Assembly (NCBI GenBank): GCA_964250695.1
Contig: CAXUGY010000013.1
Coordinates: 5,291 to 69,290, forward strand
Reading direction: 5' to 3'
Source of the DNA: an uncultured Chthoniobacterales bacterium
Lineage (GTDB): Bacteria > Verrucomicrobiota > Verrucomicrobiia > Chthoniobacterales > SZAS-18
DNA length: 64,000 nt
Position numbers and translations under genes: made by a program. This document shows positions 13,362 to 64,000 of this stretch, piece after piece. A model generated the notes under the pieces. The model did no database searches. It was not told the origin of the DNA and saw only the letters and a list, made by a program, of their open reading frames with translations. Each line of letters opens with the position of its first letter. The stretch's first letter is position 1.

Positions 13362-14303
13362 GTGGCCGCCGACGAGGAAAACGCCGGGCGGGCAGTCTAC
13401 ACGCTGGCCGACCTGCGCGACTGGCCGCACGCCACCGCGCAGGTAAAAACGCCCCTGCGGCTCGCGGTGCTGGGCGACCCGGTGGCGCATTCCGCGTCGC
13501 CCCCGATGCACAACGCCGCGCTGGCGGCCGGCGGCATCGACGCGCGCTACACACGCCTGCACATCCGGGCCGACGAACTCCCGGAAGCCCTCCGGCTGGT
13601 TGTCCGCGCCGGGTTCATCGGCGTCAACCTGACTCTCCCGCACAAGGTCGCGGCGTTGTCGCTGCTCGACGAGGTGGACCCGCACGCCGCCGCCCTGGGC
13701 GCGGTCAACACGGTGCGCCTGCACGGGGACGGTCGGCTGCACGGGTTCAACACGGACGGCCCGGGATTCGTCCAGGCCATCCGCGCGGACTTCGGCGTGG
13801 ACCTGCGCGATTTGCGCGTGTTGATCCTCGGCGCGGGCGGCGGAGCGGGCCGCGCATTGGCGACCCAGTGCGCACTGGCCGGTTGCCCGCGTCTGGCGCT
13901 CGTGAACCGCACCCCCGAAAAAATCCGCGCGCTGGCCGAATCCTTGCGGGACCTGCGGGCGACCGGCACGGAAATCTCGACCCTCGCCTGGGAAACAGCC
14001 GTCCTGTCAACGGCTTTGCAGGAAACAGACCTCGTGGTCAACGCGTCTTCCGTCGGCTTGAGACCCGGTGACGCGTCGCCGTTGGCCGGGGTCCCCGTCC
14101 CGCCCCGGCTGCTGGTGTTCGACACGGTGTACCGGGCGGATGGCCGTTCGACGCCGCTCGTCGCTGCCGCGCGTGCCGACGGCGCCAGCGCGGTCGGCGG
14201 GATGTCCATGCTCCTGCACCAGGGCGCGCTGGCCTTCGAGCGTTGGTTTGCGCGCCCGGCCCCGCTGGCCATCATGCAACGGGCGCTCGAACCTGCCCGT
14301 TGA
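13362..14303 (+). CDS. aroE: Shikimate dehydrogenase
   Basis: GDPVAHSASP, NLTLPHK, GAVNT, NTDGPG, LGAGGGAG, MLLHQGA. Confidence 0.93.
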   Translation: MAADEENAGRAVYTLADLRDWPHATAQVKTPLRLAVLGDPVAHSASPPMHNAALAAGGIDARYTRLHIRADELPEALRLVVRAGFIGVNLTLPHKVAALSLLDEVDPHAAALGAVNTVRLHGDGRLHGFNTDGPGFVQAIRADFGVDLRDLRVLILGAGGGAGRALATQCALAGCPRLALVNRTPEKIRALAESLRDLRATGTEISTLAWETAVLSTALQETDLVVNASSVGLRPGDASPLAGVPVPPRLLVFDTVYRADGRSTPLVAAARADGASAVGGMSMLLHQGALAFERWFARPAPLAIMQRALEPAR

Positions 14304-50353: not shown

Positions 50354-51121
50354 TTAACTCTCTGCTATCCGGCCGGGGCGAGATGAAGCCGTGGGGGCCG
50401 CCGGTTCGTTTGCCGGGTGGGAACCAGGGCCGCCCAGCCCCTGCTCCATGTGTCGGCGGACTCCCCGCGCCTGTTCCAGACGTTCGCCGAGGCGTTCGCT
50501 GGCGCGGGAAAGCGCGTCGTTCTGCTCGGGCAGGCGCATGGCTTCCGGCACGGGATCGAGCACCACGTCGATGTCCTCGAAGACCCGGCGCAGGGTTTCG
50601 GCAGCTTTGTCGAACTTCGCGGCGGCAGCCCTGGGTAGCTGATCATTCTCGCAGAGCGGCGCGCGTTCCGCCTCGGCGACCATCGTGCGGACCAGATCCG
50701 CGACCATCTCGTTCACCTCTTCTTCATGCGGCGTGATGACCCCATCCGCAAACAGCCGCTTTTCGATGGCGACCTTGATTTCCATCACCTCGCGCAGTTC
50801 GTAAATCAGCCGTTTCGTCGGCAGGTGCGAGAGCTGCCCCGCCAGCCGGGTCAACCGCTGGTAAAGATCGGCGTTTTCCGCCAGCCGGTATTCGTTGAGC
50901 AGCGTGGTGCGCACCTTCCCGGTGAGACGCGGCCACCGCTTTTCCCAGAGCTTGGCGACCACCGCGAAAGCCGCCACCAGCAACGCCAGAAACACCAGCG
51001 CAGGGAGGCCGACGAAAGCATACAACGCCGCCAGCACGGCAAAGGGCAGCCACGTCACCGGATCGGTGATGATCCGGTGCAGGGCGTGGCGGGCCACGTC
51101 CATCTGATCGGGGGCGCTCAT
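50354..51121 (-). CDS. Hypothetical membrane protein (N-terminal TM hairpin, helical C-terminus)
   Basis: PVTWLPFAVLAALYAFVGLPALVFLALLVAAFAVVA then charged helical region; last gene of the operon. Confidence 0.7.
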   Translation of the reverse strand: MSAPDQMDVARHALHRIITDPVTWLPFAVLAALYAFVGLPALVFLALLVAAFAVVAKLWEKRWPRLTGKVRTTLLNEYRLAENADLYQRLTRLAGQLSHLPTKRLIYELREVMEIKVAIEKRLFADGVITPHEEEVNEMVADLVRTMVAEAERAPLCENDQLPRAAAAKFDKAAETLRRVFEDIDVVLDPVPEAMRLPEQNDALSRASERLGERLEQARGVRRHMEQGLGGPGSHPANEPAAPTASSRPGRIAES

Positions 51122-51146
51122 CGAAGGGAATCTTAACGGATTTCGC

Positions 51147-52703
51147 TCATGGGCCGACCAGAAAAATCCGGGCGCGGCGGGCGCTGCGGTTCCACTCGGC
51201 GTCGCTCTCGTTGGGGTAACGTTGCGGCGTTTCCGTCGATCCCTTGCCCCGCGCGAGGACCCGGTCTTCGGGCACCTGACATTCCGTGGCGAGGAACCGC
51301 TTCACCTCCAGCGCGCGTTCATCGGAAAGCGTCTGGTCCGCTTCGGGCGAATCCCCCGGGCTGACGTGCGCCTCGACCACCACCCGGAAGCCCGGATAGT
51401 TCGCCAGCTTCGGCGCGGCGTCGCGGATCGACCCCTGAAAATCCTCGGGAATCTCCGCCCGGCCCGGCGCGAACACGATGGGTTCGTCGATCAACGTGCC
51501 GCGCACCTGCTTGCTCAGATCGTCCCATTGCGCCGGAGTCAGCGGCGGGTAATACGCGCCCAGCCGGTGGCTACCCGCGTTCGGGTTGTCCGCCGCCACA
51601 CCGCCAGCGAGCGCGGGGATGTTGCCGGGATGCGCGGCGACGGCTTGGACCGTGCCCCGGTAGAGGATCGAATACGGGTCGTCGTTCTGCAGGTCGATGC
51701 GCTGCTGATGGTCGCGCAGGATCGTCTGGATCTGCCGGACGCTGCCGACGAGGCGCGCGTCCTGGTCGCGGCTCTGGAGCAGCCAGTCGCTCGTGTTGTC
51801 GGGCAGCGTGGCGAACCGGATGCCGCGCAGCATGGTCTCGGCGTCCCCGGGCAGTTTACTGCTGTCGTGCGCGGCGGCGTCGGTGAAGGCGGCGGCGTGG
51901 TTGAGGTAATCGTGCAACGCCTCGAAATAAGCGTGCGTCACGATCTCGGCGAGCTTGGGGTCATCCGCGATGAGACGGCGGCTGGCCAAGGCGATGTCGA
52001 TGACCAGGCCCTGCGCCTGCTGCGTGTCGATGAGGACGCGCGCGCCCGGGATCTCGGCCTTCGCGCGGCTCACCAGCGGTTCCCAGAGCACGGCGAACTG
52101 CACCCGCCCGTCACGCAGGGCGTTGTACGCGGCATCGACGCTGTCCACGCGCGACGCCTCCAGCCCGGGGCGCAGCCGGTCCAGATGAAAATGGCTGATC
52201 TCCGAACGCAGCAAAAACTCGGACGGCGACAACCCGACGAACGCGCCGCGCGTGCCGGGTTTGTTGAGGTCGTCCAGGCTCTTGACGCCCGGGTCTTTCG
52301 CCAGCACGGCGTCGCCGCCGAAGCTCTCGTCGATGACGAACGCCACCACGCCCGGCCAGCCCGTCGCCTCGCCGTTGGCCAGGTAGCTGTCGAGCGTCAC
52401 GGCGGCGAAATCGCACTTTCCATCGCGCAGACCGGCCAGGCGTTTGGCGAAATCCGGCTCCATCGCCCAGCGCACGCCGACCCCCTGGTCCGCCAGCGCG
52501 CGGGCGAAACGCGGCGAGCGCAGCACGAGGTAGCCCAGCCAGTCGTCGCCCCAGACCGTGATCGTGCGGTCGAAGTGGCGCGTGTCGCTGGTGCGCGCGA
52601 ACAGGTGGTCGCGCCGCCGCGCCTCGCGCCACGAACGGGTCAGACCCCAGCCGATCATCGCCACGGTGGCGAGGACCAACAGGATGGAGAGCGTTTTTTT
52701 CAT
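51147..52703 (-). CDS. Solute-binding protein (NMT1/THI5-like) fused to C-terminal OmpA-like domain
   Basis: N-terminal TM (MKKTLSILLVLATVAMIGWG); DESFGGDAVLA..LDDL; IVFAPG..EAHVS..LSDERALEVKRFL..ARGKG..ARRARIFL. Confidence 0.75.
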   Translation of the reverse strand: MKKTLSILLVLATVAMIGWGLTRSWREARRRDHLFARTSDTRHFDRTITVWGDDWLGYLVLRSPRFARALADQGVGVRWAMEPDFAKRLAGLRDGKCDFAAVTLDSYLANGEATGWPGVVAFVIDESFGGDAVLAKDPGVKSLDDLNKPGTRGAFVGLSPSEFLLRSEISHFHLDRLRPGLEASRVDSVDAAYNALRDGRVQFAVLWEPLVSRAKAEIPGARVLIDTQQAQGLVIDIALASRRLIADDPKLAEIVTHAYFEALHDYLNHAAAFTDAAAHDSSKLPGDAETMLRGIRFATLPDNTSDWLLQSRDQDARLVGSVRQIQTILRDHQQRIDLQNDDPYSILYRGTVQAVAAHPGNIPALAGGVAADNPNAGSHRLGAYYPPLTPAQWDDLSKQVRGTLIDEPIVFAPGRAEIPEDFQGSIRDAAPKLANYPGFRVVVEAHVSPGDSPEADQTLSDERALEVKRFLATECQVPEDRVLARGKGSTETPQRYPNESDAEWNRSARRARIFLVGP

Positions 52704-52717
52704 CGGTTGAGCGCGTG

Positions 52718-53866
52718 CTACCGCCGCCGCCAGATCAACCGCACCAGGACGAACACCCCGACGAGCAGGACGAGTTTCCACGCGGAGGTGGTCCGGTTGT
52801 GTCTCTGGCTGGGGGTCGATTGGTTGCTCGGAACGGGCAAAGGCGAAGGCGATCCGAACGGCGAGAAAGGCCGCGCCGTTTCCACCGGGGTCGGCGCGCC
52901 GACCGGGTTGGAATCATCAACCGGTGCGGCGAAGGCGATCTTGGTCATCGCCGCCGGCAGCGCGGCCTGGGTCATGGCGGCGCGGGTCGCCGCATCCACG
53001 ACCACGTCGGTCGGGTCGCCGATCTCCGAGCCGATCACGTTCAACCCCTTGGCGATGTCTTCCCCGTTTTCGGGCGAGAAAAAATGCGTGGCGCTCCCTT
53101 TCATGTAATCCCCCTCGCCCTGGTAGCCGAACGCGATCACCTCCACGCCGTCCGCCCGCAGACGCCGGATTTCCTGCTGCACCCCGGCGACGCCCCGGTT
53201 GCTGGTGTCCTCGCCGTCGGTCAGGATCACCATGACCTGCCGCTCGTAGGGCGCGCCGGACGCGCGGCGTTGGCGAATGATCTTGCCCACCGCCGCGACC
53301 GTGTCCGCCAGCGGCGTGCCGCCCCCGGCGCGGAGGCGGTCCACGGCGGCGAGCACCTGCCGCTTGTCGTTGCGCGCCAACTGGACGAGCGGACCCGCGT
53401 TGAGCGCGGTCAGTCCGAAGCGGTCGTTGTCCGGCGCGCGTTCCAGCCACGCGTGAAAGGCCTCTTTGGCCATGCCGAGTTTTCGGTTGTCGTTCATGGA
53501 ACCGGAGTCGTCGAAGACGATGGAAACCGCCACGCCAGCCTGGGCGTTGCGTTCCTCGTCGAGCGCGGCCATGCGGGCGGTCCAGGCTGCGTCGCTGGAG
53601 GATGCCGGTGGTTGGGCACCCACCAGAGGCCGCATCGTCAACAAAACCGCCGCGCACCATACAACCTCTGTCACCCTGAGCGGAACGACGAAGGAGCGCG
53701 GTCGAAGGACCTTCCGGCCAGCGGCAGCGAAGCGTGATCGCAAGCACATCACCCTATTCAAGTGGCGGCCCTGCCTACCGGTGGTCGGAAGGTCCTTCGA
53801 CCGCGCTCGCAGACTCGCTCCGCTCAGGATGACAGAGCTTTTTATGCGGCGGTTTTTTGTGATCAT
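52718..53866 (-). CDS. Exported vWA domain protein with C-terminal membrane anchor
   Basis: MIDAS VSIVFDDSGSM, GGTPL, ILTDGED; P/S/T linker; WKLVLLVGVFVLVRLIWRRR tail; start 53866 or GTG 53890. Confidence 0.82.
   Translation of the reverse strand: MITKNRRIKSSVILSGASLRARSKDLPTTGRQGRHLNRVMCLRSRFAAAGRKVLRPRSFVVPLRVTEVVWCAAVLLTMRPLVGAQPPASSSDAAWTARMAALDEERNAQAGVAVSIVFDDSGSMNDNRKLGMAKEAFHAWLERAPDNDRFGLTALNAGPLVQLARNDKRQVLAAVDRLRAGGGTPLADTVAAVGKIIRQRRASGAPYERQVMVILTDGEDTSNRGVAGVQQEIRRLRADGVEVIAFGYQGEGDYMKGSATHFFSPENGEDIAKGLNVIGSEIGDPTDVVVDAATRAAMTQAALPAAMTKIAFAAPVDDSNPVGAPTPVETARPFSPFGSPSPLPVPSNQSTPSQRHNRTTSAWKLVLLVGVFVLVRLIWRRR
53666..53837. mobile_element. Palindromic MITE/RPE-like element (GTCATCCTGAGC family), copy 2, within the vWA reading frame
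   Basis: Terminal IR CTCTGTCACCCTGAGCGGA / TCCGCTCAGGATGACAGAG (1 mismatch); internal CGCGGTCGAAGGACCTTCCG/CGGAAGGTCCTTCGACCGCG IR. Confidence 0.75.
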
Positions 53867-53886
53867 GGCGTCAATAAGTTGAAAGC

Positions 53887-55731
53887 TCACTTCAAATCGT
53901 CCGCGCCGATCTCCGCCGGAATTTCGCTCTCGGCGGCGATGATGACCATTTCCCCGCGCATGTTTTCGGCGCGCTGTTCGGGCGTTTGCGGGTTCTTGAC
54001 GACGGGATTGCCGAGACCCATACCCTTCACGTCGAAGCGCGACAGGTCCACCTCGTCCGGGCCGAGGTGCAAGTTCTCGCGCACGTAGGCCGCGTAGGCC
54101 CGCTTGACCGCGAAGGCGCGCGAATACGACAGCGCGTTGGCGTCGTTGAGAAGTTCCTCCGGTTTGGGCAGCGGCAGGGTCTCGAATTTATCCGTGCCCG
54201 CGACGCGGCGCTGGTAGGTCGTCTGGCCTTGCGCCTGCTTGGCCTGCACAAAATTGTAGAAGAAATTATCCGCGTTACCGCGCAGTTGCACCACCGCGCC
54301 GCCGTAACGGCTGACCGTCTCGTTGATCTTGCTAAACACGTCCGGGTAATCGCTCCACTTGATCTCGCTGACCTGCGCCGGGAATTTGAACGTGTAGCGG
54401 TACATGATGTTCGCACCCGCGCTGTCGGCGGCCTTGCGCACCGCCTGGGTCGAGGCGAACGCGGGCTTCGGCGTTTCCAGGGTGACACCTTTTCCTTTGT
54501 CAAACCCGCCGGGGGTCACACCGGGCGCGGGCCGGTTGTAGGCGATGGTCACCGGGCTTTCGATCAGGCCCAACCCTTGAAAGAATTCCTGGATGCGCGC
54601 CGTCGTCGCCCGGAAGCCGACCGGGCTGGCGTCGTCGAAAAACCGCGCGTTGCCCGCCCGGCCCGCGAGCTGCGAATCGCTGCCGACCCAGATGATGTAA
54701 TCGCTGACGGCGTTCTCATCCTGGTTGAAGATTTTTGCCAGCGGTTTGCACAACGTTTTGAAGTTGTTGACGCGCTTCTTGTCGGCGTCGCGGCCCTTCT
54801 TGACGTTGGCGAGTTCGTCCATGAACATCTCTTGCTGGCGGAGGTGCGCCTCGCGGAACGCCTCGACCAGTTCGGGGTGTTCGCCCAGGAAATCGCGCCG
54901 CACGGCGTAGGTGTCGAAGATGATGCTCGACGCCGTTTTCGTGGTGAAAATCGGGCGAGCGCCTTTGACCGTGCCTTCGAGGCCGGTGCCGGTCGTGCCA
55001 CCGGCAGTCAGGGCCAGGATGTCCGGCGAAATGCACGCCGCCCCGGTGAGCGACGGGTCACGGCGGAAGGCGTTGGCCGGGTCCTCGGCGGGAGCGGACG
55101 GCTTGGAGCCGGGGTCGGCGGTGATCTGCTTGACGAACTTGATCTGGACATCGCCGGGTTGGAGTCCGGCGTCTTTGAGCAGGTTGCCGATCAACGACAG
55201 GTGCGGCCCGTTGAGCTGCGTGACGAGGGTCTTGCCTTTCAGGTCGGCCAGCGTCCCGAGATTCTTGGCCACGAAACCGTCCGCGCCGGTCGAAGTGGAG
55301 AGTTGCAGCACGACCACCGGTTCCAGGTTGGGATCGACGGTTTTCAACGCTTGCGCCACCAGCGCGATCATGTCCGCCGTGCCGCGCAGGAACGGCGATT
55401 TCCCGGAGACGTAATTCTGTACCTGCTGGTCGAAATCGTCGATCACCTCCAGCTTCACCGGACGCCCGAGCGCGCGGGCCAGCGGCGAGTTGGGATTCGG
55501 CTCCAGGCCGCCGTTCGCGCTGACGGTCACGCCGTCCGCCGCCCAAGTGAGGAGCGGAATTTGCAACGCACCCTGCGCGCTGACGACCCCCTTGCGGGTT
55601 GTCTTGAGGAACAGAGACGCGCCGTATGGTTTGGCCGGTTCGACGTAACGCACCCCGGCGGGCGTCTGCGCCGAGGTGGACGCCAGTCCGAGACAGGAAC
55701 AAACTGCCGCCGCAAGCAAGGAACGTTTCAT
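53887..55731 (-). CDS. Exported solute-binding protein (NMT1/THI5-like) with divergent C-terminal OmpA-like domain
   Basis: Sec signal ..STSA-Q; IPLLTWAAD, SGKSPFLRGT, STGADG..LADLKGK; NALSYSRAFAVK..VKGMG..RAENMRGEMVII. Confidence 0.72.
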   Translation of the reverse strand: MKRSLLAAAVCSCLGLASTSAQTPAGVRYVEPAKPYGASLFLKTTRKGVVSAQGALQIPLLTWAADGVTVSANGGLEPNPNSPLARALGRPVKLEVIDDFDQQVQNYVSGKSPFLRGTADMIALVAQALKTVDPNLEPVVVLQLSTSTGADGFVAKNLGTLADLKGKTLVTQLNGPHLSLIGNLLKDAGLQPGDVQIKFVKQITADPGSKPSAPAEDPANAFRRDPSLTGAACISPDILALTAGGTTGTGLEGTVKGARPIFTTKTASSIIFDTYAVRRDFLGEHPELVEAFREAHLRQQEMFMDELANVKKGRDADKKRVNNFKTLCKPLAKIFNQDENAVSDYIIWVGSDSQLAGRAGNARFFDDASPVGFRATTARIQEFFQGLGLIESPVTIAYNRPAPGVTPGGFDKGKGVTLETPKPAFASTQAVRKAADSAGANIMYRYTFKFPAQVSEIKWSDYPDVFSKINETVSRYGGAVVQLRGNADNFFYNFVQAKQAQGQTTYQRRVAGTDKFETLPLPKPEELLNDANALSYSRAFAVKRAYAAYVRENLHLGPDEVDLSRFDVKGMGLGNPVVKNPQTPEQRAENMRGEMVIIAAESEIPAEIGADDLK

Positions 55732-57563
55732 GATTTGGATGGTGGGTGGTTGACGGAAGCTGCGGAGGCCGCCAACGCTTCGAGCAGCGGCACGGCGTGC
55801 TTGGCCAGGGTTTCGTCGAGCGTCCAGAAACTCTGGAGAGGGTCGCGCTCGAAATATTTGACCACGAAGATGATCAGCGTCTGGAAATGCGCCGCGAGGT
55901 GCGGACGCTCTTTTTCCAGTTGTTCGTGGATGATCCCGTTGAGGGTCATGCCGATTTGCAGCAGGTTGAGGAACACCTGGAAAAACGCGTTGATGCGTGG
56001 GCGGCCTTCCGGGTCAACAGCGATTTCCAGCTTGATGCCGAGGTGGGTTTCCTGCACTTCGCTGAAGATGGCCAGCAGGCGTTCGAGGACGATTTTGAGT
56101 TCTGTGTCGAGCGTTTCCACCGACGCCACGGCGGCGAAGTTGCGCCGGTATTTGAGCCGGAACAACAGCCGCGCCCGCTCGACGAACCCGGCTTTGAGTT
56201 CCTCGTCCTTGGCGTAGAGCGTGTTGACGCGTTTGAGCGACTTGACGAAGAACGACAGGTCCGCCCAGGCGAAGTCGATCTTTGCCGGGTGCTGGGAGAA
56301 GAGCGACGAGGAGGGCAAATCCAGCCCCGCCACCCGGCAGGCGGCCCGCGCGCGGTACTCGATCATGTCGGCGGCGAGTTCCGCGATGATCGGCGCGAGC
56401 AACGGTTGAAACCGCTCGTGCATCCAGGCTGCCGCGAACTGGCGGGCGAGCGTTTCGTCGAAGAGGAGAGTGCCGTCGCGCCGCAGGTAAACGAGGTCGA
56501 GGAACGTGCAGAGTTTTTCGCCCACGCGCGCGGTGTCGCTCGGCGCGAGCGGCAGTTGGAGCGACGCCATGCGGTCGTAGAGCGTGCCGAGGCCGGTCAG
56601 GTCCGCCTGCCAGTAATGGCCCCAGCTATCGTGGACGAGGTATTTCTCCAGGTTGTCGCGTTCTTCGACGAACACCGCCGTGTTGAGCAGCACGATCAAC
56701 CCGGCGCGGTCCAGGTCCATCGCCGACGCGAGCCGGTCGAGATGCGCCGGGTCCATTTCGCGCGCCTCGAACGAGGTGAACGCCGGGAAGTGCGAGAAGT
56801 TGTAGAAGTTGAACTTCCGCAGCCGCTCCAGGTAATCGAGCGTGATTTTGCGCGCCGCCTCGTCGCGGGCGAGGAAACCTGCGGTCTTCGCAAAGGCATC
56901 GTTGGAAAGGATGCAAAAATAAATGCAGCTTTCCGTGGCGAGCACTTCCACCTCGCCGGGTTGCAGCGGGTGGTCGGGAAACAACGCGCTGAAGAAGCGG
57001 TGCGCGGCGGCGGAGTCCGGCGGACGAGCCGGAGCGGGCCGCAGTTCCGTGCGCAGCAGCGAAACGAGCTGGCGGCGGCGGGCGAGTTTGGCGGCGGCGG
57101 TCCGGGCCTGCGCTTCGATGAGGTCGCGGTCGGCGGCATTTAATCCCGTGCGTTCGCAGAGCTGGGCGAACACGGCGGCGTGCGTCCCGGGGTCCTCGTG
57201 CGGTGGCCGGACCACCGAGAAACTCGGCGTGGGCAGGGTGGCGATGATCTCGCCCTCGGCACCGACGGTGTCCGGGTACAGGATGGTCAGCCGGTAAGCC
57301 TGCGCGAAGGCCAGGGCGGCGTTTCGATCCGCCGAGGTCCACGGGGTTTCGCTGGCGAGCGCCGGCGGTCGGGCGAGCGCCGTTTGCAGACGGCTTTCGA
57401 GCGCGTGCAGGGTCGTTTCCTGCTCGGGCGAAAGATGGCCCATCTTGGCGTAGGAATCGACGTTGAGCAACTCGACCAACGAGCGGGCGTCGGCGCAGGC
57501 GGTCGCCAGCGAAGGATCGAGCGGACGGGTGAACGGATCGCTGGCGGCATCGAAGAAGTTCAT
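55728..57563 (-). CDS. Hypothetical 611-aa protein
   Basis: Long ORF with coding-like codon usage, ATGA-coupled to the downstream gene; no family recognised; contains HDSWGH. Confidence 0.8.
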   Translation of the reverse strand: MNFFDAASDPFTRPLDPSLATACADARSLVELLNVDSYAKMGHLSPEQETTLHALESRLQTALARPPALASETPWTSADRNAALAFAQAYRLTILYPDTVGAEGEIIATLPTPSFSVVRPPHEDPGTHAAVFAQLCERTGLNAADRDLIEAQARTAAAKLARRRQLVSLLRTELRPAPARPPDSAAAHRFFSALFPDHPLQPGEVEVLATESCIYFCILSNDAFAKTAGFLARDEAARKITLDYLERLRKFNFYNFSHFPAFTSFEAREMDPAHLDRLASAMDLDRAGLIVLLNTAVFVEERDNLEKYLVHDSWGHYWQADLTGLGTLYDRMASLQLPLAPSDTARVGEKLCTFLDLVYLRRDGTLLFDETLARQFAAAWMHERFQPLLAPIIAELAADMIEYRARAACRVAGLDLPSSSLFSQHPAKIDFAWADLSFFVKSLKRVNTLYAKDEELKAGFVERARLLFRLKYRRNFAAVASVETLDTELKIVLERLLAIFSEVQETHLGIKLEIAVDPEGRPRINAFFQVFLNLLQIGMTLNGIIHEQLEKERPHLAAHFQTLIIFVVKYFERDPLQSFWTLDETLAKHAVPLLEALAASAASVNHPPSKS

Positions 57564-58038
57564 GGGGTAGCCCGAATGTAAAGCGTTCTCCGGCCCATGC
57601 CACGGCGGACCGTTGGCCGGACGAAAATGCGGCGGATGCCCCGGCAGCGTTGCCGGAGCGATGACATCGACCTCGCTCCCGCCGCTGAGGCGTTTGCCGG
57701 TCGTCTGGATGTCGTTTTTGATTCTTGGGTCGGCGGCTGTTCTCCCTGCTTACGGAGGCAGCCTTCTGCTCTCTGCCTGAAGAAACCTGCTCCGGCCGGT
57801 CTCTTGATGTGGATGCTGACGAGGTTAGCTGTCGGGCTGGGAGCATCGAGCCTCCCCGGCGTTTGCAAGCAGCGCCGCAAGCCCCGATCCCGCCGCCGCC
57901 ATCGGCTGGCGGGAATTTTTGGGTCCCCCGTTCGCCGGAGTTTTGTCCGACGATTGAGCGTAGCAAAGAACTAACGTCAAACTTCCATCGTTCTTCTAAA
58001 TTGCAAGTCAGGCGTCATCCGCCGTAGGCTGGCGGACC

Positions 58039-58944
58039 GTGTTCGATTCCGCCTTCCTCGCCAAGCTCGAACGGCTGCACCTGCTCTCGCGCCGTACTTT
58101 CGGGGGTCAGGCCCGCGCCGAACGCCGTTCGCACAAACTCGGCTCCAGCCTCGAATTCGCCGATTACCGCCCCTACGTCCCCGGCGACGATCTGCGCTCC
58201 ATCGACTGGAACATCTACGGGCGTTCGGAGAAATTGTTCCTCAAACTCTTCGAGGAAGAGGAAGACCTGCACATCGATCTGCTGGTGGATACCAGTGCCT
58301 CCATGCGCTGGACCGCCCGCGACGCCCGCACCGACGCGCCGCTCCGCCCTTCTAAACTGGACCTCGCGCGGCGGCTCGCCGGGACGCTGGCCTACATCGG
58401 GCTGGCCAATCTGGACCGCGTCAACCTCCATTACTTCTCGGAAGGGCTGGGCGACGATCTCGGCACGGGCCGGGGCAAGAGCCATTTCCACCGCGTGCTC
58501 GCCTTTCTGGAACGTGTCCCCGACGCCGCCGGGCAGACCGATTTAATGCGCACCCTGCGAGGCTTTGATCAACGCGCCCGTCGTCGCGGCCTCGTGCTTA
58601 TTCTGAGTGATTTTTTCGATCCGCTGGGTTACGAGAACGCGCTCAATTTCCTGCGGCATCAGCGGTTCGAGATCCAACTCATCCAAACGCTCGACCCTGC
58701 CGAACTCACCCCGCGTCTGCTGGGCGACCTGCGCCTGACCGACTCGGAAACCAGCGCGGTGTACGAGGTGACGGCCAACGACACGCTGGTCCGCGCCTAC
58801 GAGCGGGAAATCCGCACATTTCTCGCCGGGCTGGAGACGTTCTGCCAGCGGCGGCAGATCGGTTACCGTCGCGCCATCACCGATGCACCGTTCGAGGAGA
58901 TTATCCTCAAAATGCTGCGTGGCGGCGCGGGGCTGGTAAAGTAA
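58039..58944 (+). CDS. DUF58 domain protein (MoxR-associated)
   Basis: SLEFADYRPYVPGDDLRSIDWN, LVDTSASM, LILSDFFD. Confidence 0.9.
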   Translation: MFDSAFLAKLERLHLLSRRTFGGQARAERRSHKLGSSLEFADYRPYVPGDDLRSIDWNIYGRSEKLFLKLFEEEEDLHIDLLVDTSASMRWTARDARTDAPLRPSKLDLARRLAGTLAYIGLANLDRVNLHYFSEGLGDDLGTGRGKSHFHRVLAFLERVPDAAGQTDLMRTLRGFDQRARRRGLVLILSDFFDPLGYENALNFLRHQRFEIQLIQTLDPAELTPRLLGDLRLTDSETSAVYEVTANDTLVRAYEREIRTFLAGLETFCQRRQIGYRRAITDAPFEEIILKMLRGGAGLVK

Positions 58945-58945
58945 A

Positions 58946-59590
58946 TCAAGCCTGCGCCGAACGGCGGCGCACGAGCAAAGCCGCGCCGCCGGTCAATGCC
59001 AGACCGAGCAGAACGGACGCCGAGGGCTCGGGCACAGCGGGCAGCGCCGAGCCGTTCACCTGGAATTCCTGCGGACCGGCCGCCAGACTCCGATAAACCG
59101 TGGTGTTACCCGTCACGAAAAAGGAGGCGCTGGTCGCCGGGAGGCTCGCCCCGAAAGCAGAAGCGTAATCCGTGGAACTGGTGTAGCTCCATTCGACGGT
59201 GCTGCCGCCACCGCTGGTCAGCACAAAATAATACCCGCTGTTGGCCTGCAAGGTAAACGCCCCGCTGACCGTGGCCGTGGTGACAGTGGACGCGCTGTTG
59301 AAGCCCACGGAAAAGCCGGTGAAGAGCGAGGCGCCCAAGGTGCCGTCGGCATTGCGGCTGTACACCGCGACGCTCTCACCGGTACCCAGACCGCCGGTTT
59401 GCAGGAACATCACGCTGGTCAGCGAAATCGGTCGGTTGCCGGTCAACAACGCTTGGCCGATCCGAGTGGCATTCTCCCCGAACGCTGGATTGTCGGGATC
59501 GAGATTGCTGACGACAACCGCCGCGCCTGCTTGCTGCCCGGTCAGACCCAGCAAAGCCAAGCAAAGAAATCCTAATAAATGTTTTTTCAT
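58946..59590 (-). CDS. PEP-CTERM exported protein
   Basis: Signal peptide ..QQAGA-AVVVSNL; C-terminal VPEPSASVLLGLALTGGAALLVRRR. Confidence 0.9.
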   Translation of the reverse strand: MKKHLLGFLCLALLGLTGQQAGAAVVVSNLDPDNPAFGENATRIGQALLTGNRPISLTSVMFLQTGGLGTGESVAVYSRNADGTLGASLFTGFSVGFNSASTVTTATVSGAFTLQANSGYYFVLTSGGGSTVEWSYTSSTDYASAFGASLPATSASFFVTGNTTVYRSLAAGPQEFQVNGSALPAVPEPSASVLLGLALTGGAALLVRRRSAQA

Positions 59591-59856
59591 ATTTCTCAAA
59601 ACAACGCCGCTAGACGATCCCTGCGTGCGGACTATCCCAAAGCCGATGATTTTTTCAAACGGCGCTATCCTATCGATGAGCGAGCGGTTGACAACTAAAA
59701 ACTTGTCTACCCTACAAAAAGTTCTACGCCGCTGCTGCTAGGCCCCTCGGAAAACGCCTCTACTCACCGCTTGACGCCCTTTCCCGCCGCCTCATGTTCT
59801 CCCATGGTCGATTCCCCTGACTCGTGTCCGTCGGTGCGGCAGCCTATCCCTAACTC

Positions 59857-61794
59857 TTGACCCTGCTCAACCCGCTGGCGCTCGCCTTTGCCGCGCTGCT
59901 GCCGCTGATCGTCGTTCTCTACCTGCTCAAGCTGCGGCGGCAGCCCGCGCAGGTCTCGACGCTGATGTTCTGGCAGCGCGTCACGGCGGACAACCGGCGG
60001 CGGGCCTTGTTCCAGCGGTTGCGGCAGATTCTTTCGCTGCTGCTGCACCTTTTGATTTTCGCGCTGCTGGTGTTCGCGCTGGCCCGGCCCGAGCCCCGCG
60101 CGTTCCGGGGCGGCGAGGCGGGTTTATCGACGGTCGTGATCCTCGACGCCCGCGCCCGGATGCAGGCCCGCGCCGGGAACGAAACCCGTTTTGACGAGGC
60201 GCGCCGCGTCGCCGCGAGCTACCTGCGCCGCGCGACGGTCCGGCAGCCGGTGGCGCTCCTGGTCGCCGACGCCGCGCCGCACGTCCCTGCCGGTCTGAGC
60301 GACGACGAAAAATCCCTCCTCGCCGCGCTCGGCGCCGCCCGACCCACCGACGCGGGCGGACGCCTCGAAGACGCCGTGACCCTGGCGGGTGAGTTGCTCG
60401 CCGCTCGACCAGGCGCACACCGGATCGTCCTCGTGACGGACCACGCGCCCGCCCTCCCTCCCGGCGTGCCGCCCGCCGAACTCGAAACCCACCTCGTCGG
60501 CGAACCGGACACCCCGCGCGAGAACGTCGGCTTCACGCGGCTCTCCGCCCGCGCGCTGCCGGGCAGTCCCGAGACGGACGAGGTGTTCGTAGAAATCGAA
60601 AACTTCGGCCCCCACCGGCAAACGGGCCGCGTCGAACTCACCTTCGAGGGCCGCCTGCTCGACGTGAAACCCTACGACCTCGCGCCGGGTGAACGCCGGG
60701 CCGATGTTTACCCCGCGCTGGCCACCCGCACCGGCGTCGCCAACGCCCGCGGCTGGCTGACGGCCCACCTCGACCCCGCCGACAAAACCGCCGACGCCTT
60801 TGCCCTGGACGACGACGCCTATGCCACGGTTCCCCCGCCCCGCCCGGCGCGGGTGCTGCTGGTCACGCGCGGAAACTGGTTTCTGGAAAGCCTGTTCAAA
60901 GCCGACGAGCAAATCGCCTTCGATCAACTCACCCCGGACGTCTTTCAACCCGCGCAAGCCGCCGGATTTGATGCGGTGGTCCTCGACGATTTTCTGCCGC
61001 CTGCTCTCACCGACCTGTCCTCGCTGCCCGGCGGCAACTTCCTCTTTCTGCGCCGCGCGCCGTTGCCCACGGAAGGCGCGGAACTGCCGCATCCACCCGT
61101 CACCGATCTCGACGCCGCCAGCCCGTTGCTGCGGCTGGTCAACCTGCGGGACGTGACCGTGTTGCGTGCGCAGCCGTGGACGTTGCCGGAACCCTCGCAC
61201 GATCCCGGGGGTTGGAGGTTCACCGCCCCGGTGCGTTCGCTGGAACACCCGCTCGTGGTGACGGGTGAGCGTGGCGCGCAACGTTTCGTGGCGCTGGCCT
61301 TCGGCGCGGCGGATTCCGACCTGCCTTTGCGGGTGGCGTTTCCGTTGTTCATCCACGATGCCGTCGGCTGGCTGGCCGGACGGGACCACGCCGCCGCCAC
61401 GCCCGACGCCGTTCGCGCCGGAGACTCCATCGTGCTCGCGCCCGGCGAAACGCTCTGGACCCGGCCCCAGCGCACTTTTCAGCCAGTGGACAACATCCCT
61501 GCTGCTGAAAAGATCAGCGGCCCCGGGGTGTTCCAACCCAGGCGCAACGGTTTTTATCTACGGACGGACCGGGATGGTTCGACGCGCTGGGTCGCGGTGA
61601 ACACCGGCGAGCGCGCCATGTCCGCGTTGAACGCTTTCCCCGGCGGGACCGCTCCGGCGACGCCCGTCGCAACGTTGGAGCCGGGTTACTGGAAAACGGT
61701 CCCCCCCTGGCCTCCCTGGGTCTACCTCGCGCTGGCGGCCTTTGCCTTGTGCGCGCTGGAGTGGTGGAGCTTCCACCGCCGCCGTACCGAATGA
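59857..61794 (+). CDS. BatA N-terminal domain / vWA protein with C-terminal TM
   Basis: MTLLNPLALAFAALLPLIVVLYLLKLRR (BatA), VVILDARARM (degenerate MIDAS), C-terminal WVYLALAAFALCALEWW. Confidence 0.85.
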   Translation: MTLLNPLALAFAALLPLIVVLYLLKLRRQPAQVSTLMFWQRVTADNRRRALFQRLRQILSLLLHLLIFALLVFALARPEPRAFRGGEAGLSTVVILDARARMQARAGNETRFDEARRVAASYLRRATVRQPVALLVADAAPHVPAGLSDDEKSLLAALGAARPTDAGGRLEDAVTLAGELLAARPGAHRIVLVTDHAPALPPGVPPAELETHLVGEPDTPRENVGFTRLSARALPGSPETDEVFVEIENFGPHRQTGRVELTFEGRLLDVKPYDLAPGERRADVYPALATRTGVANARGWLTAHLDPADKTADAFALDDDAYATVPPPRPARVLLVTRGNWFLESLFKADEQIAFDQLTPDVFQPAQAAGFDAVVLDDFLPPALTDLSSLPGGNFLFLRRAPLPTEGAELPHPPVTDLDAASPLLRLVNLRDVTVLRAQPWTLPEPSHDPGGWRFTAPVRSLEHPLVVTGERGAQRFVALAFGAADSDLPLRVAFPLFIHDAVGWLAGRDHAAATPDAVRAGDSIVLAPGETLWTRPQRTFQPVDNIPAAEKISGPGVFQPRRNGFYLRTDRDGSTRWVAVNTGERAMSALNAFPGGTAPATPVATLEPGYWKTVPPWPPWVYLALAAFALCALEWWSFHRRRTE

Positions 61795-61800
61795 GGACTC

Positions 61801-61884
61801 GTCCGCGGATTCCGCAGATCGAGAAAAGGACAGCCGCCAACGGCCTCCTCTCTGCATCTGCGACAAGCTGCGCAATCGGCGGAC
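61801..61884. repeat. Degenerate CCGCAGAT/ATCTGCGG palindromic repeat, copy 2
   Basis: GTCCGCGGATTCCGCAGAT...AGGACAG...ATCTGCGA..AATCGGCGGAC resembles 45336-45450. Confidence 0.6.
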
Positions 61885-61952
61885 AACTTCTGCTCGCCGT
61901 GACTCGCCGAGGCCCTTGACCCCGCCGCGCCCCCGACGCAAGTTCAAGAGCG

Positions 61953-64000
61953 TTGCCCGTCGAACTCACTCATCCCTGGTTCCTGGCACTTGCCGTCGTC
62001 GTTGCGCCGTTGCTCGCCTTGGCGATGCGGCGTTCGCTGGCCGACCTGACCCCGGCCCAACGCCGCGCCTGCGTCCTCGTGCGCACGCTGCTCTTAGGGT
62101 GCATCCTCCTCGCGCTGGCGGGGATGCGTTGGCAGTGGCACGGGGACGATCTGGCGGTCGTTTTCCTCGTCGATGATTCCGCCAGCATTTCGCCCGAGGC
62201 CCGGATCGCCGCGCGCCGTTGGGTCGAGGACAGCGTCAAACATCGCCGCCCGCACGATGCCGTCGGCGTGCTCGGCTTCGCGCAAAACGCCGCCGTCTGG
62301 CAAGCTCCGGTGGAAAGCAATCAACTGGCCGCCCACTGGCCGGACACCCCGGACGCCGCCCGGACCGGCACCGACGTGGGTCGCGCCCTGGCGTTCGCCG
62401 CCGCCGTCCTGCCCCCGCAGACGGCCCGCCGGATCGTGCTGCTCAGCGACGGCAACGACACCGCCGACGCCGGGACCGCTACCGCCGCCCGCCTCGCCGC
62501 CCAAGGCGTCCGGGTGGATACCGTCGCCCTGCGCAACCCGGCGAAGCCCGAGGTGCTCGTCGCCGCCGTCGAGGTGCCCGGCGGTCTGAAATCGGGCGAA
62601 CCGTTCGAGTTGCGCGCTGAAATCGAAAGCAACGTCGCCACGACGACCAGGGTCAACCTGTACCAGAACCAATTCCTCGCCGGACAACAGGACCTCGCCC
62701 TCAAGCCCGGACGCAACGAGGCGCGCTTCTCCAACCGGCGGGCCGCCGACGGCTTCACCAGTTACGAGGTCGAAATCCTGCCCGCCGCCGACACCCGGCT
62801 GGAAAACAACCGCGCCGGGACCACCGTCGCCCTGGGCGGGCGTCCGCGCGTCCTGCTCGTGGCGGGCGACGAGGAGAAAGCCGCGCCGCTGGCCGGGGCC
62901 TTGCGCGACGCCAGGATCGACGTGGAAACGCGCGGTCCCGCCGGGCTGCCGCGCTCGCTGACCGACCTGCAACGCTTCGACCTGTTCGCGCTCGGCGACG
63001 TTTCCGCGCTGCAAATGACCCACGACCAGATGGAGCTTTACCGCACCTGGGTCCAGCAGTTCGGCGGCGGCTTCCTCATGATCGGCGGCGAAAACAGCTT
63101 CGGCGTCGGCGGGTATTTCCGCACCCCGATTGAAACGATGCTGCCCGTGCGCACCGACCACGACGACCGCCAGGAAACCCCCACCGTCGCCATGTACGTC
63201 GTACTCGACAGCTCCGGTTCGATGACCGCGTCCGTCGGCAACGCGACGAAGATCGGGCTGGCGGACCAGGGCGCGGTGCTCGCCCTGAACGTCCTCGGCG
63301 GCAAGGACCTCTTCGGGCTGACGGCGGTCGATACGGTGGTGCATGCCGTGGTCCCGCTCGGCCCGGCGGGAGCGAAGTCGGCCTCCGAGCAGAAAATCCT
63401 GGCCGTCACGGCGGGCGGCGGCGGCATCTACATTTACACCGGCCTGGCCGATGCGTTCCGCGTGATCCGCGCCGCCAACGCCAAGATCAAGCACGTCCTC
63501 GTTTTTTCCGATTCCGCCGACGCCGAGGAAAAGGTTGCGGGCGAGCAGCCCGACGGCGCGAAGGACGGCGGCTCGTCGCTCGATCTCGCCGGCGCGATGC
63601 TGGCCGAGAAGATCACGGTGAGCGTGGTGGGCCTGGGCGGCGAGCACGACAAGGACGTGCCTTTCCTGCGCGCGCTCGCCGAGCGGGGCAACGGGCGTTT
63701 CTACCAGACGGACGACGCGCGCAACCTGCCGCAGATTTTCAGCACGGAGACGATGAAAGTCGCGCAGTCCAGTCTGGTCGAAGAACCGTTCGTGCCCGTG
63801 CCTGCCGCGCCGTCGCCGCTGACGGCGGGCATCGACTGGAAAAACTGTCCGCCGCTCCTCGGGTACAATTCGACCAAGCCCAAGCCCACCGCTGACATCG
63901 CCCTGGCGACCGAGCTCGGCGAGCCGCTGCTGGCGACCTGGCGCTACGGACTCGGGCAAACCGCCGCGTTCACGAGCGACGCCACCGCGCGCTGGGCGGG
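61953..64000 (+). CDS. Double-vWA / class I glutamine amidotransferase-like membrane protein (3' partial; absent from ORF track)
   Basis: Translated by hand from TTG 61953: ELTHPWFLAL.., VFLVDDSASI, MIGGENSFGVGGY, VVLDSSGSM, GEPLLATWRYGLGQTAAFTSD; frame checked at three points. Confidence 0.85.
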   Translation, partial: MPVELTHPWFLALAVVVAPLLALAMRRSLADLTPAQRRACVLVRTLLLGCILLALAGMRWQWHGDDLAVVFLVDDSASISPEARIAARRWVEDSVKHRRPHDAVGVLGFAQNAAVWQAPVESNQLAAHWPDTPDAARTGTDVGRALAFAAAVLPPQTARRIVLLSDGNDTADAGTATAARLAAQGVRVDTVALRNPAKPEVLVAAVEVPGGLKSGEPFELRAEIESNVATTTRVNLYQNQFLAGQQDLALKPGRNEARFSNRRAADGFTSYEVEILPAADTRLENNRAGTTVALGGRPRVLLVAGDEEKAAPLAGALRDARIDVETRGPAGLPRSLTDLQRFDLFALGDVSALQMTHDQMELYRTWVQQFGGGFLMIGGENSFGVGGYFRTPIETMLPVRTDHDDRQETPTVAMYVVLDSSGSMTASVGNATKIGLADQGAVLALNVLGGKDLFGLTAVDTVVHAVVPLGPAGAKSASEQKILAVTAGGGGIYIYTGLADAFRVIRAANAKIKHVLVFSDSADAEEKVAGEQPDGAKDGGSSLDLAGAMLAEKITVSVVGLGGEHDKDVPFLRALAERGNGRFYQTDDARNLPQIFSTETMKVAQSSLVEEPFVPVPAAPSPLTAGIDWKNCPPLLGYNSTKPKPTADIALATELGEPLLATWRYGLGQTAAFTSDATARWA

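Follow-up and report, generated by a model that had tools for sequence, protein, structure and literature searches.

What is the role of two binding proteins with OmpA-like domains, placed on either side of a von Willebrand factor A (vWA) protein, in an operon that encodes no transporter? This question is raised by five co-oriented genes, here termed g1 to g5, in the DNA of an uncultured Chthoniobacterales bacterium (assembly GCA_964250695.1, contig CAXUGY010000013.1). The whole stretch analysed, hereafter the window, is 64,000 nucleotides (nt) long, and the five genes lie towards its end. An initial annotation of this DNA had proposed an envelope-stress complex rather than a transporter. Judging from gene neighbourhoods, conserved residues and predicted structures, we put the probability at about 60% that the five genes encode the wall-anchored outer half of a trans-envelope machine, its membrane adaptor and a cytoplasmic component with an unknown fold, the other parts of the machine being PspA/IM30 (bacterial ESCRT-III) and a Cdc48-like AAA+ ATPase. 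The system is most likely a poorly known type of bacterial membrane repair that joins PspA/ESCRT-III to an AAA+ ATPase. The genes are as follows.

g1, 55728–57563, minus strand: 611 amino acids (aa), orphan cytoplasmic, mostly helical protein
g2, 53887–55731, minus strand: 614 aa, secreted protein with a TauA/SsuA/NMT1-like binding fold and a split OmpA-like C-terminus
g3, open reading frame (ORF) 52718–53890, probable gene 52718–53866, minus strand: exported vWA protein with a C-terminal transmembrane (TM) anchor
g4, 51147–52703, minus strand: 518 aa, N-terminal TM helix, binding fold and OmpA-like domain
g5, 50354–51121, minus strand: 255 aa, inner-membrane helical hairpin and cytoplasmic helical domain

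Five minus-strand ORFs are found where the initial annotation had placed five co-oriented genes, and its protein identities (binding protein-OmpA, anchored vWA, binding protein-OmpA and TM/helical protein) agree with Pfam and PDB profile matches and with the predicted topology. No permease or ATP-binding cassette (ABC) ATPase gene lies in or beside the operon, and neither g1 nor g5 matches a family in Pfam, NCBIfam or PADLOC.

Module conservation and the PspA, TelA and AAA+ partners

Loci were retrieved with a g1 profile and then scored with the five window proteins. Because greedy ORF calling in high-GC loci picked spurious antisense ORFs, synteny was taken from homology matches and deposited gene calls. 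The five genes co-occur in about 50 loci from two phyla and three lineages. Their order is g1-g2-g3-g4-g5 in Chthoniobacterales, g2-g3-g4-g5-g1 in Verrucomicrobiales (eight loci) and g2-g3-g4-p5-g1 in Candidatus Poribacteria (about 33 loci), where the position of g5 is taken by p5, a helical protein with two TM helices. The initial annotation had named a lack of conserved co-occurrence as grounds for giving up its proposal; what we find is constant membership in two phyla under a variable order, which is good evidence for a functional unit. A relative with 88% identity, L087, has the same bare five-gene arrangement. Between it and the window, the ratio of nonsynonymous to synonymous substitution rates (dN/dS) is 0.09–0.14 for each of the five genes at a dS of 0.45–0.76, indicating that the module is kept by purifying selection also where PspA is missing from the arrangement.

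The distribution of g1 is patchy. It is found in 8 of 14 species genomes of the genus, in none of 16 genomes from other genera of the family and in none of 300 other genomes sampled across the phylum. Two verrucomicrobial loci (L011 4598–6442 and L020 1261–3126) hold a g1 homologue, with the other module genes not found within the fetched flanks. In the congeners G302 and G311, g4 and an adjacent AAA gene are present and g1 is not detected at E ≤ 1e-10. The g4 match of G311 is confined to the final ~120 residues of the model; in G302, g4 sits 23 kb into its contig. ORF-based gene counts are unreliable for L004, a long-read metagenome-assembled genome, because apparent indel errors split g2, the AAA gene and the ABC ATPase gene over several frames.

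The company that the module keeps in relatives points to its likely partners. In L003, L004, L005, L008, L009 and L088, g5 has two genes immediately behind it, one for PspA/IM30 (PF04012, 247–251 aa) and one for an AAA protein (PF00004, about 560 aa). This linkage holds for all Chthoniobacterales relatives whose g1 is less than about 80% identical and whose downstream sequence is long enough. In L006, PspA follows g5 at the contig end. About 27 Poribacteria loci that have no g2-g4 read p5, PspA-like (two to five copies), g1, AAA. The PspA-like paralogues of such Poribacteria loci (type B, L043–L080) are diverged, arranged in tandem and only weakly matched by PF04012 (E about 1e-6), and their multiple copies recall multi-subunit ESCRT-III sets. 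Whole-genome searches of four Poribacteria and four Verrucomicrobiales species found exactly one g1, one g4 and one AAA homologue in each, in whatever way the genes are divided among loci. We therefore regard the arm (g2-g4), the adaptor pair (g5 or p5 with g1) and the motor pair (PspA with AAA) as units that have been recombined into differing operons.

In two distant homologous loci, L089 (10972–13880) and the P0041 contig, the gene after a g5-like gene is TelA (PF05816) in place of PspA, and it is followed by, or lies near, an AAA ATPase gene and a g1 homologue; the L089 AAA protein is of another type, with two P-loop regions and AAA_lid_6. This replacement suggests that PspA and TelA are interchangeable membrane-facing partners. 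TelA is absent from the window genome, while control genomes scored positive in the same search. The Psp/TelA-type company that the initial annotation had supposed is thus real, in the form of PspA and AAA+ behind g5 in relatives and of TelA in these two loci.

The window genome itself encodes a single PspA (47 bits, above the Pfam cut-off) directly upstream of a single 563-aa AAA+ protein. The pair lies on contig C6 (94291–96735; L085 8289–10736), unlinked to the window. The AAA+ protein has one PF00004 domain at residues 323–449, closest to the D2 domain of Cdc48/VCP (E 6e-33). The two proteins are probably the partners of the five-gene operon, encoded in trans, in which case the operon would not be self-contained. 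The C6 unit is divergent from a sulfotransferase gene and lies upstream of a histidine kinase gene and a PAS/histidine kinase/receiver hybrid kinase gene. Its AAA protein is 90% identical to that of the congener G308, which has neither g1 nor g4.

A related operon type has been predicted independently by comparative genomics. Ravi et al. 2024 (mSystems, PMC11237479) describe PspA with a two-domain AAA+ protein, inactive in its N-terminal copy, and, in PspA-AAA+ operons, a 'divergent Snf7' protein anchored in the membrane (SIG+TM+'Snf7'). Longer operons add a SIG+PBPB+OmpA protein, a permease and an ABC ATPase (for example OGG56892.1 of Ca. Handelsmanbacteria). They suggest that membrane remodelling is linked to solute transport. 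The module studied here resembles this type in its signal- or TM-anchored binding fold fused to OmpA and its small membrane-anchored helical protein. Close relatives also share PspA with a ~560-aa AAA+ protein that has one recognisable C-terminal classical AAA domain, and some of them a NitT/TauT-type ABC importer; in both cases the operons are known from genes alone. The window differs in having two periplasmic binding protein (PBP)-OmpA proteins that flank a vWA protein with a metal-ion-dependent adhesion site (MIDAS), as well as the orphan 611-aa g1. Moreover, PspA and AAA+ are not in the window operon (they are on C6), the ABC genes are absent, and g5 has no detectable Snf7/PspA similarity. 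The word vWA occurs in neither the paper nor its supplement, and within the portions consulted neither a g1-like protein nor a second PBP-OmpA protein was found described. By its gene content, the five-gene module is a variant of the operon type of Ravi et al., which is known only from comparative-genomic prediction. The initial annotation had taken the system to be undescribed; that no longer applies to the operon type, and applies to the vWA and g1-like components as far as the consulted text extends. No experimental work on the system was found in the literature searched.

Proteins of the arm, the adaptor and g1

Both g2 and g4 combine an exported or anchored periplasmic binding fold with an OmpA peptidoglycan-binding domain. 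For g2, a Sec signal peptide is predicted, and the Pfam NMT1 match reaches 21.2 bits against a cut-off of 20.5; there are further matches to SsuA_fam and, at the C-terminus, to MotB/TssL. Profile comparison with the PDB returned TauA (6ssy, E 2.7e-7) and the OmpA-like domain of Omp38 (E 1.6e-7, residues 451–495 plus 539–604) for the same protein, whose C-terminus is of a divergent OmpA-like peptidoglycan-binding type split by an insert. g4 has a TM helix at residues 4–22, a fold of the TauA/urea-binding-protein type (TauA in the PDB, 6e-5) and a canonical OmpA-like peptidoglycan-binding domain (PF00691, E 7e-9; OmpA-like domains in the PDB down to 1e-16). It also matches TIGR03427 (E 1e-10). 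The SsuA_fam, TauA and TIGR03427 matches all fall far below the family cut-offs.

The N-terminal folds of both proteins thus resemble NitT/TauT-class binding proteins (TauA, SsuA, NMT1/THI5-like) through weak but consistent matches. They differ from this class by the peptidoglycan-binding fusion, by the membrane anchor of one of them (g4) and by a cognate permease and ATPase that were found neither in the operon nor in the genome. NCBI names g4-type proteins 'phosphate ABC transporter substrate-binding/OmpA family protein', and a literature search for substrate-binding/OmpA family proteins returned nothing. The module and its relatives offer a functional context for this widespread class. No transporter here or in most of the loci examined justifies the name.

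The vWA protein g3 matches PF00092 (VWA, E 2e-12) and PF13519 (E 6e-11). Its MIDAS is intact, with the DxSxS motif (D127, S129, S131), T192 and D225 invariant in nine homologues. A proline-rich linker leads to a C-terminal TM helix (residues 360–378 of the 382-aa form) and a terminal RRR. The 5' part of the gene contains one further feature:

Palindromic dispersed repeat, 53666–53837, no strand: 172 nt, in frame in the 5' part of g3

This element, with an imperfect inverted repeat of about 50 nt, lies in the signal-peptide region of the gene right behind ATG 53866 and matches about 20 other contigs of the same genome. An orthologous repeat stands at the same site of g3 in L087 (about 13740–13960), in frame despite indels; the two copies share 69% identity with 39 gap positions, a multiple of three. 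That both copies are in frame suggests that read-through translation is tolerated or selected. The element is absent from the g3 genes of L088, L005 and L008.

The junctions bear out the initial annotation in part. Read from the sequence, g1 and g2 overlap by ATGA, and the gaps between g3 and g4 and between g4 and g5 measure 14 and 25 nt. The GTGA overlap proposed for g2/g3 is probably not a real start, because g3 homologues begin at the MITK/MN methionine that corresponds to ATG 53866, 20 nt past the g2 stop. g3 probably starts at this ATG, with GTG 53674, 3' of the repeat element, as the alternative. A longer ORF for g4, up to 52781, is an upstream extension.

The AlphaFold2 model of g5 (predicted local distance difference test score, pLDDT, 83; predicted template modelling score, pTM, 0.67) contains helices at residues 21–37 and 41–97 and four more. 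An inner-membrane hairpin (residues ~21–60) runs into a 57-residue helix and continues as a cytoplasmic helical domain of about 170 residues with a disordered tail; hydropathy peaks at residues 37–55. This topology makes g5 a candidate adaptor between the membrane/periplasmic arm and g1/PspA. Its size, position and membrane anchor fit the TM-anchored helical protein of the Ravi et al. operon type. We rejected g5 as a PspA/Snf7/ESCRT-III-, TelA- or XpaC-like protein: Pfam found no family in 14 members, hhalign against the linked PspA proteins showed no similarity (probability 0.3%), the PDB profile search was negative, and Foldseek gave no fold match, with Vipp1 at rank 34 (E 3.3). Between g5 and p5 there is a weak full-length hhalign match (E 8.6e-4, probability 23%).

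The g1 family shows no Pfam match in 21 homologues, and the window protein also has none in NCBIfam or PADLOC. No hydrophobic segment is present, and g1 is predicted to be soluble and cytoplasmic. Its AlphaFold2 model is of good quality by its scores (pLDDT 86, pTM 0.87) and has no fold match in the PDB (Foldseek, best E 0.1, TM-score about 0.1); no sequence match was found in the PDB either. Across 19 sequences down to about 25% identity, two motifs are invariant: KYLxHDxWGHxWQ (H311, D312, H316) and, 78 residues past HDxWGH, AExxADxxE (E395, D399, E402). PSSS and K428/D430/D435 (KxD…D) are invariant too. Such a set is what a metal or catalytic site would be expected to show, and we refer to it as a putative metal site.

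An exhaustive profile search placed the g1 family in 234 clusters among 1.84 billion representatives. Nearly all cluster members are about 600 aa long, and their lengths give no sign of added domains. No description of the family was found in the literature searched; g1 is a family without description there, and g5 is probably another.

Several known enzyme classes were considered for g1 and rejected. An M49 (DPP III) peptidase would carry HExxGH and EExxAE where g1 has HDxWGH and AExxAD, with Asp replacing the catalytic Glu. In addition, the 21 members gave no Pfam match, the PDB gave no sequence match, and no M49 structure is among the best 50 of 254 Foldseek matches (E up to 10). Any other zincin or an HD hydrolase finds no match in Pfam, NCBIfam, PADLOC, PDB sequences or PDB folds, and an FtsZ-like protein is opposed by the lack of a tubulin or FtsZ family match.

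Proposed mechanism and rival explanations

We propose the following mechanism, each single step of which we rate much less highly than the overall picture. From their architecture, g2, g3 and g4 would form a periplasmic arm, with g4 (N-terminal TM helix) and g3 (C-terminal TM helix) anchored in the inner membrane. If g2 and g4 bind peptidoglycan while g4 and g3 are fixed in the membrane, the arm would bridge wall and membrane. It could then report a periplasmic condition across the membrane via g4, g3 and g5, either a bound small anion or other solute, or a change in the spacing or integrity of wall and inner membrane. The binding folds would let the arm respond to a small ligand, and the MIDAS of g3 may hold partners in a metal-dependent manner. 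g5 would carry the connection to the cytoplasmic face and recruit or position g1. Probably a metal-dependent enzyme or regulator, g1 would act on or with the PspA polymer and the AAA+ remodeller, which together with g1 would stabilise or repair the inner membrane. ABC solute import would be an optional add-on of some relatives, absent here.

A bolder version holds that g1 founds a family of metal-dependent enzymes or regulators with a new fold, tethered to the inner membrane by g5, that couples a wall-anchored sensor to the PspA/TelA polymer and the Cdc48-like AAA+. We regard this as speculative and rather unlikely. If true, g1 would correspond in bacteria to the layer that targets and regulates ESCRT systems from upstream, and certain bacteria would indeed possess a machine that remodels PspA with ATP.

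According to a 2025 review (PMC7619361), a Vps4-like ATPase for bacterial ESCRT-III (PspA/Vipp1) "appears absent in bacteria". For PspA outside the Proteobacteria, the question of targeting and recycling becomes testable with the compact, recurrent parts list that the module and its relatives provide: a wall-anchored arm, a membrane adaptor, an orphan cytoplasmic protein with a metal-type motif, PspA (or TelA) and a Cdc48-like AAA+. The natural split and fused operon versions across species are ready predictions of interacting parts.

Several observations weigh against joining the five genes to PspA and AAA+ in one machine. The PspA-AAA+ pair is unlinked to the operon both here and in the 88%-identical L087, and the eight Verrucomicrobiales loci have no PspA or AAA gene within 10 kb. 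The AAA gene, as marker of the pair, occurs without g1 and g4 in G308, G322, G324 and G328, so the partnership is not obligatory. Since the pair is found alone, PspA-AAA looks like a core of wider occurrence and the five-gene module like an optional addition to it. At the protein level, g5 has no PspA/Snf7 homology detectable by Pfam, hhalign or Foldseek, the proposed equivalence of g5 and p5 draws on weak profile similarity, position and topology, and the metal site of g1 is a putative one read from invariant residues.

Could the binding proteins instead mark an accessory to transport? The wall-tethered g2 and g4 would then bind a solute resembling a sulfonate, taurine or nitrate and supply it to a NitT/TauT ABC importer. 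The module would chiefly serve nutrient or osmolyte uptake, a role that Ravi et al. proposed for the PBPB domain, with the transporter unlinked or lost in this genome. We consider this improbable. The folds of g2 and g4 are indeed closest to TauA, SsuA and NMT1, and a NitT/TauT-type ABC set (binding protein, permease, ATPase) adjoins four of the nine Chthoniobacterales loci (L004, L005, L007 and, partially, L009) and both TelA-type loci (L089 and the P0041 contig). The operon type of Ravi et al. also includes an ABC ATPase and a permease. Yet the linked set carries its own third, untethered NMT1-like binding protein, and no ABC genes lie within 10 kb of the eight Verrucomicrobiales and about 60 Poribacteria loci. 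In the window genome, which is 93% complete, neither the linked permease nor the linked binding protein has an orthologue. The best candidate there for a cognate ABC transporter, on C60, was rejected, as the permease match is only 23% identical and the neighbouring ORF has no evident link to the module. Absent from many loci and from this genome, the importer is best seen as a frequent but dispensable accessory. Given that, and given the separate binding protein that it brings along, we conclude that g2 and g4 are more than mere binding proteins of a transporter. Uptake would also leave g1, g5, the vWA protein and the PspA/TelA/AAA+ linkage unexplained, and fits poorly with purifying selection on all five genes where no transporter is present.

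The claim of the initial annotation that no transporter belongs to the module accordingly survives for this genome, where the cognate transporter that would have spoken against it was not found. It does not extend to all relatives: homologous operons with ABC genes, which the annotation had counted as contrary evidence, occur in four of nine Chthoniobacterales and in the TelA-type loci, and not in Verrucomicrobiales or Poribacteria. Its reading as an envelope-stress complex, with Psp/TelA company and no transporter, is in spirit largely borne out, and needs amending in that the PspA-AAA partners are encoded elsewhere in the genome and many relatives have an ABC importer.

Alternatively, the five genes may act on their own as an envelope sensor, adhesion or defence module, with g1 as effector enzyme and, for example, wall damage or phage attack as the signal. 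Adjacency to PspA-AAA+ would then reflect co-regulation in an envelope-stress island and not a shared complex. The genes are self-standing here, in L087 and in the eight Verrucomicrobiales loci, the patchy occurrence of g1 is that of an accessory trait, the PspA-AAA+ pair exists without the five genes, and PADLOC gives weak matches to the ZorA tail and to ZorB. We nevertheless think this account has little chance of being right. The ~27 arm-less Poribacteria loci embed g1 and a g5-type gene between PspA genes and AAA+, which ties these two to PspA/AAA+ and not to the arm, and an AAA+ homologue is kept in all eight g1-bearing genomes tested. The PADLOC matches, which lie in coiled-coil or OmpA regions, reach no meaningful threshold (E 7e-4 and 0.047), and g5 has two TM helices compared with four in MotA/ZorA.

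That the five genes are a non-functional remnant, decaying since PspA-AAA+ and ABC genes were lost from a longer ancestral operon, is barely credible: relatives with 65–77% g1 identity (L003–L009, L088) do carry seven genes, or about ten with the ABC set, and the window genome and L087 only five, with the repeat inside the 5' end of g3, but none of the five ORFs is disrupted, dN/dS between these two genomes is as low as given above at considerable dS, the repeat preserves the reading frame in both, and the catalytic-looking motifs of g1 and the MIDAS of g3 are intact.

Other envelope systems and the surroundings of the operon

The reading as the outer half and adaptor of a PspA-AAA+ machine can also be set against better known systems. 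In the classical Psp response (PspA-PspB-PspC-PspF of Proteobacteria; LiaIH of Firmicutes), small integral membrane proteins bring PspA/IM30 to the inner membrane under envelope stress, and the same probably applies here. The five window proteins, however, have no PspB, PspC, PspF, LiaI or Toastrack match in Pfam or NCBIfam. In place of an NtrC-type PspF there is a Cdc48-like AAA+, and the other partners are g1, g5, a vWA protein and PBP-OmpA fusions.

In Ter clusters, vWA proteins are associated with membrane-stress proteins. The likeness to TelA/Ter toxic-anion-resistance neighbourhoods lies in the TelA that stands in the place of PspA in L089 and the P0041 contig. Unlike these neighbourhoods, the window genome has no TelA, and the five proteins show no match to TerD, TerY-kinase/phosphatase or TerC.

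FtsZl1-vWA-OmpA operons, a predicted multicomponent membrane-remodelling system (Makarova & Koonin 2010, PMC2875224), likewise bring together vWA proteins, OmpA-family proteins and a cytoplasmic component. The five window proteins include no FtsZ/tubulin-like protein, GTPase or kinase, and because the module has no tubulin-like protein, we regard it as a different system.

Two further candidates were rejected. A stator of the Mot/Tol/Zorya type is not supported, as g5 forms a single two-helix hairpin and not a four-TM unit and the TM helix of g4 (TLSILLVLATVAMIGWGLT) contains no Asp. For a defence system, PADLOC offered only the sub-threshold ZorA/ZorB matches mentioned above.

The initial annotation had bounded the operon by a convergent aldo/keto reductase gene and a gap of about 470 nt. 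Both are confirmed: the downstream neighbour is a convergent aldo/keto reductase gene (PF00248), and a gap of 475 nt separates g1 from a divergent DUF58 gene.

Divergent intergenic region between g1 and the DUF58 gene, 57564–58038, no strand: 475 nt, presumed operon promoter region

No sigma-70 consensus was found in this region, and the scan for promoters and terminators was uninformative; the operon promoter is therefore placed by position only.

Divergently upstream, at 58039–63998, lies a Bat-like cluster with genes for a DUF58 protein, a PEP-CTERM protein on the opposite strand, a BatA-N+vWA protein and a vWA+vWA+GATase1-like protein. We rejected a functional link between the module and this cluster, and with it membership in the Bat/MoxR-DUF58-vWA aerotolerance type, as the linkage is kept in the nearest relative L087 only; in L088, L001, L089 and the P0041 contig, no DUF58/BatA-type genes adjoin the module. 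Poribacteria have a gene for a Tat-exported DUF4159 protein immediately upstream of g2 (L025 3219–4130). DUF4159 is a GATase1-like-type domain found in Bat-type operons, and a recurrent link between Bat-type genes and the five-gene module is possible.

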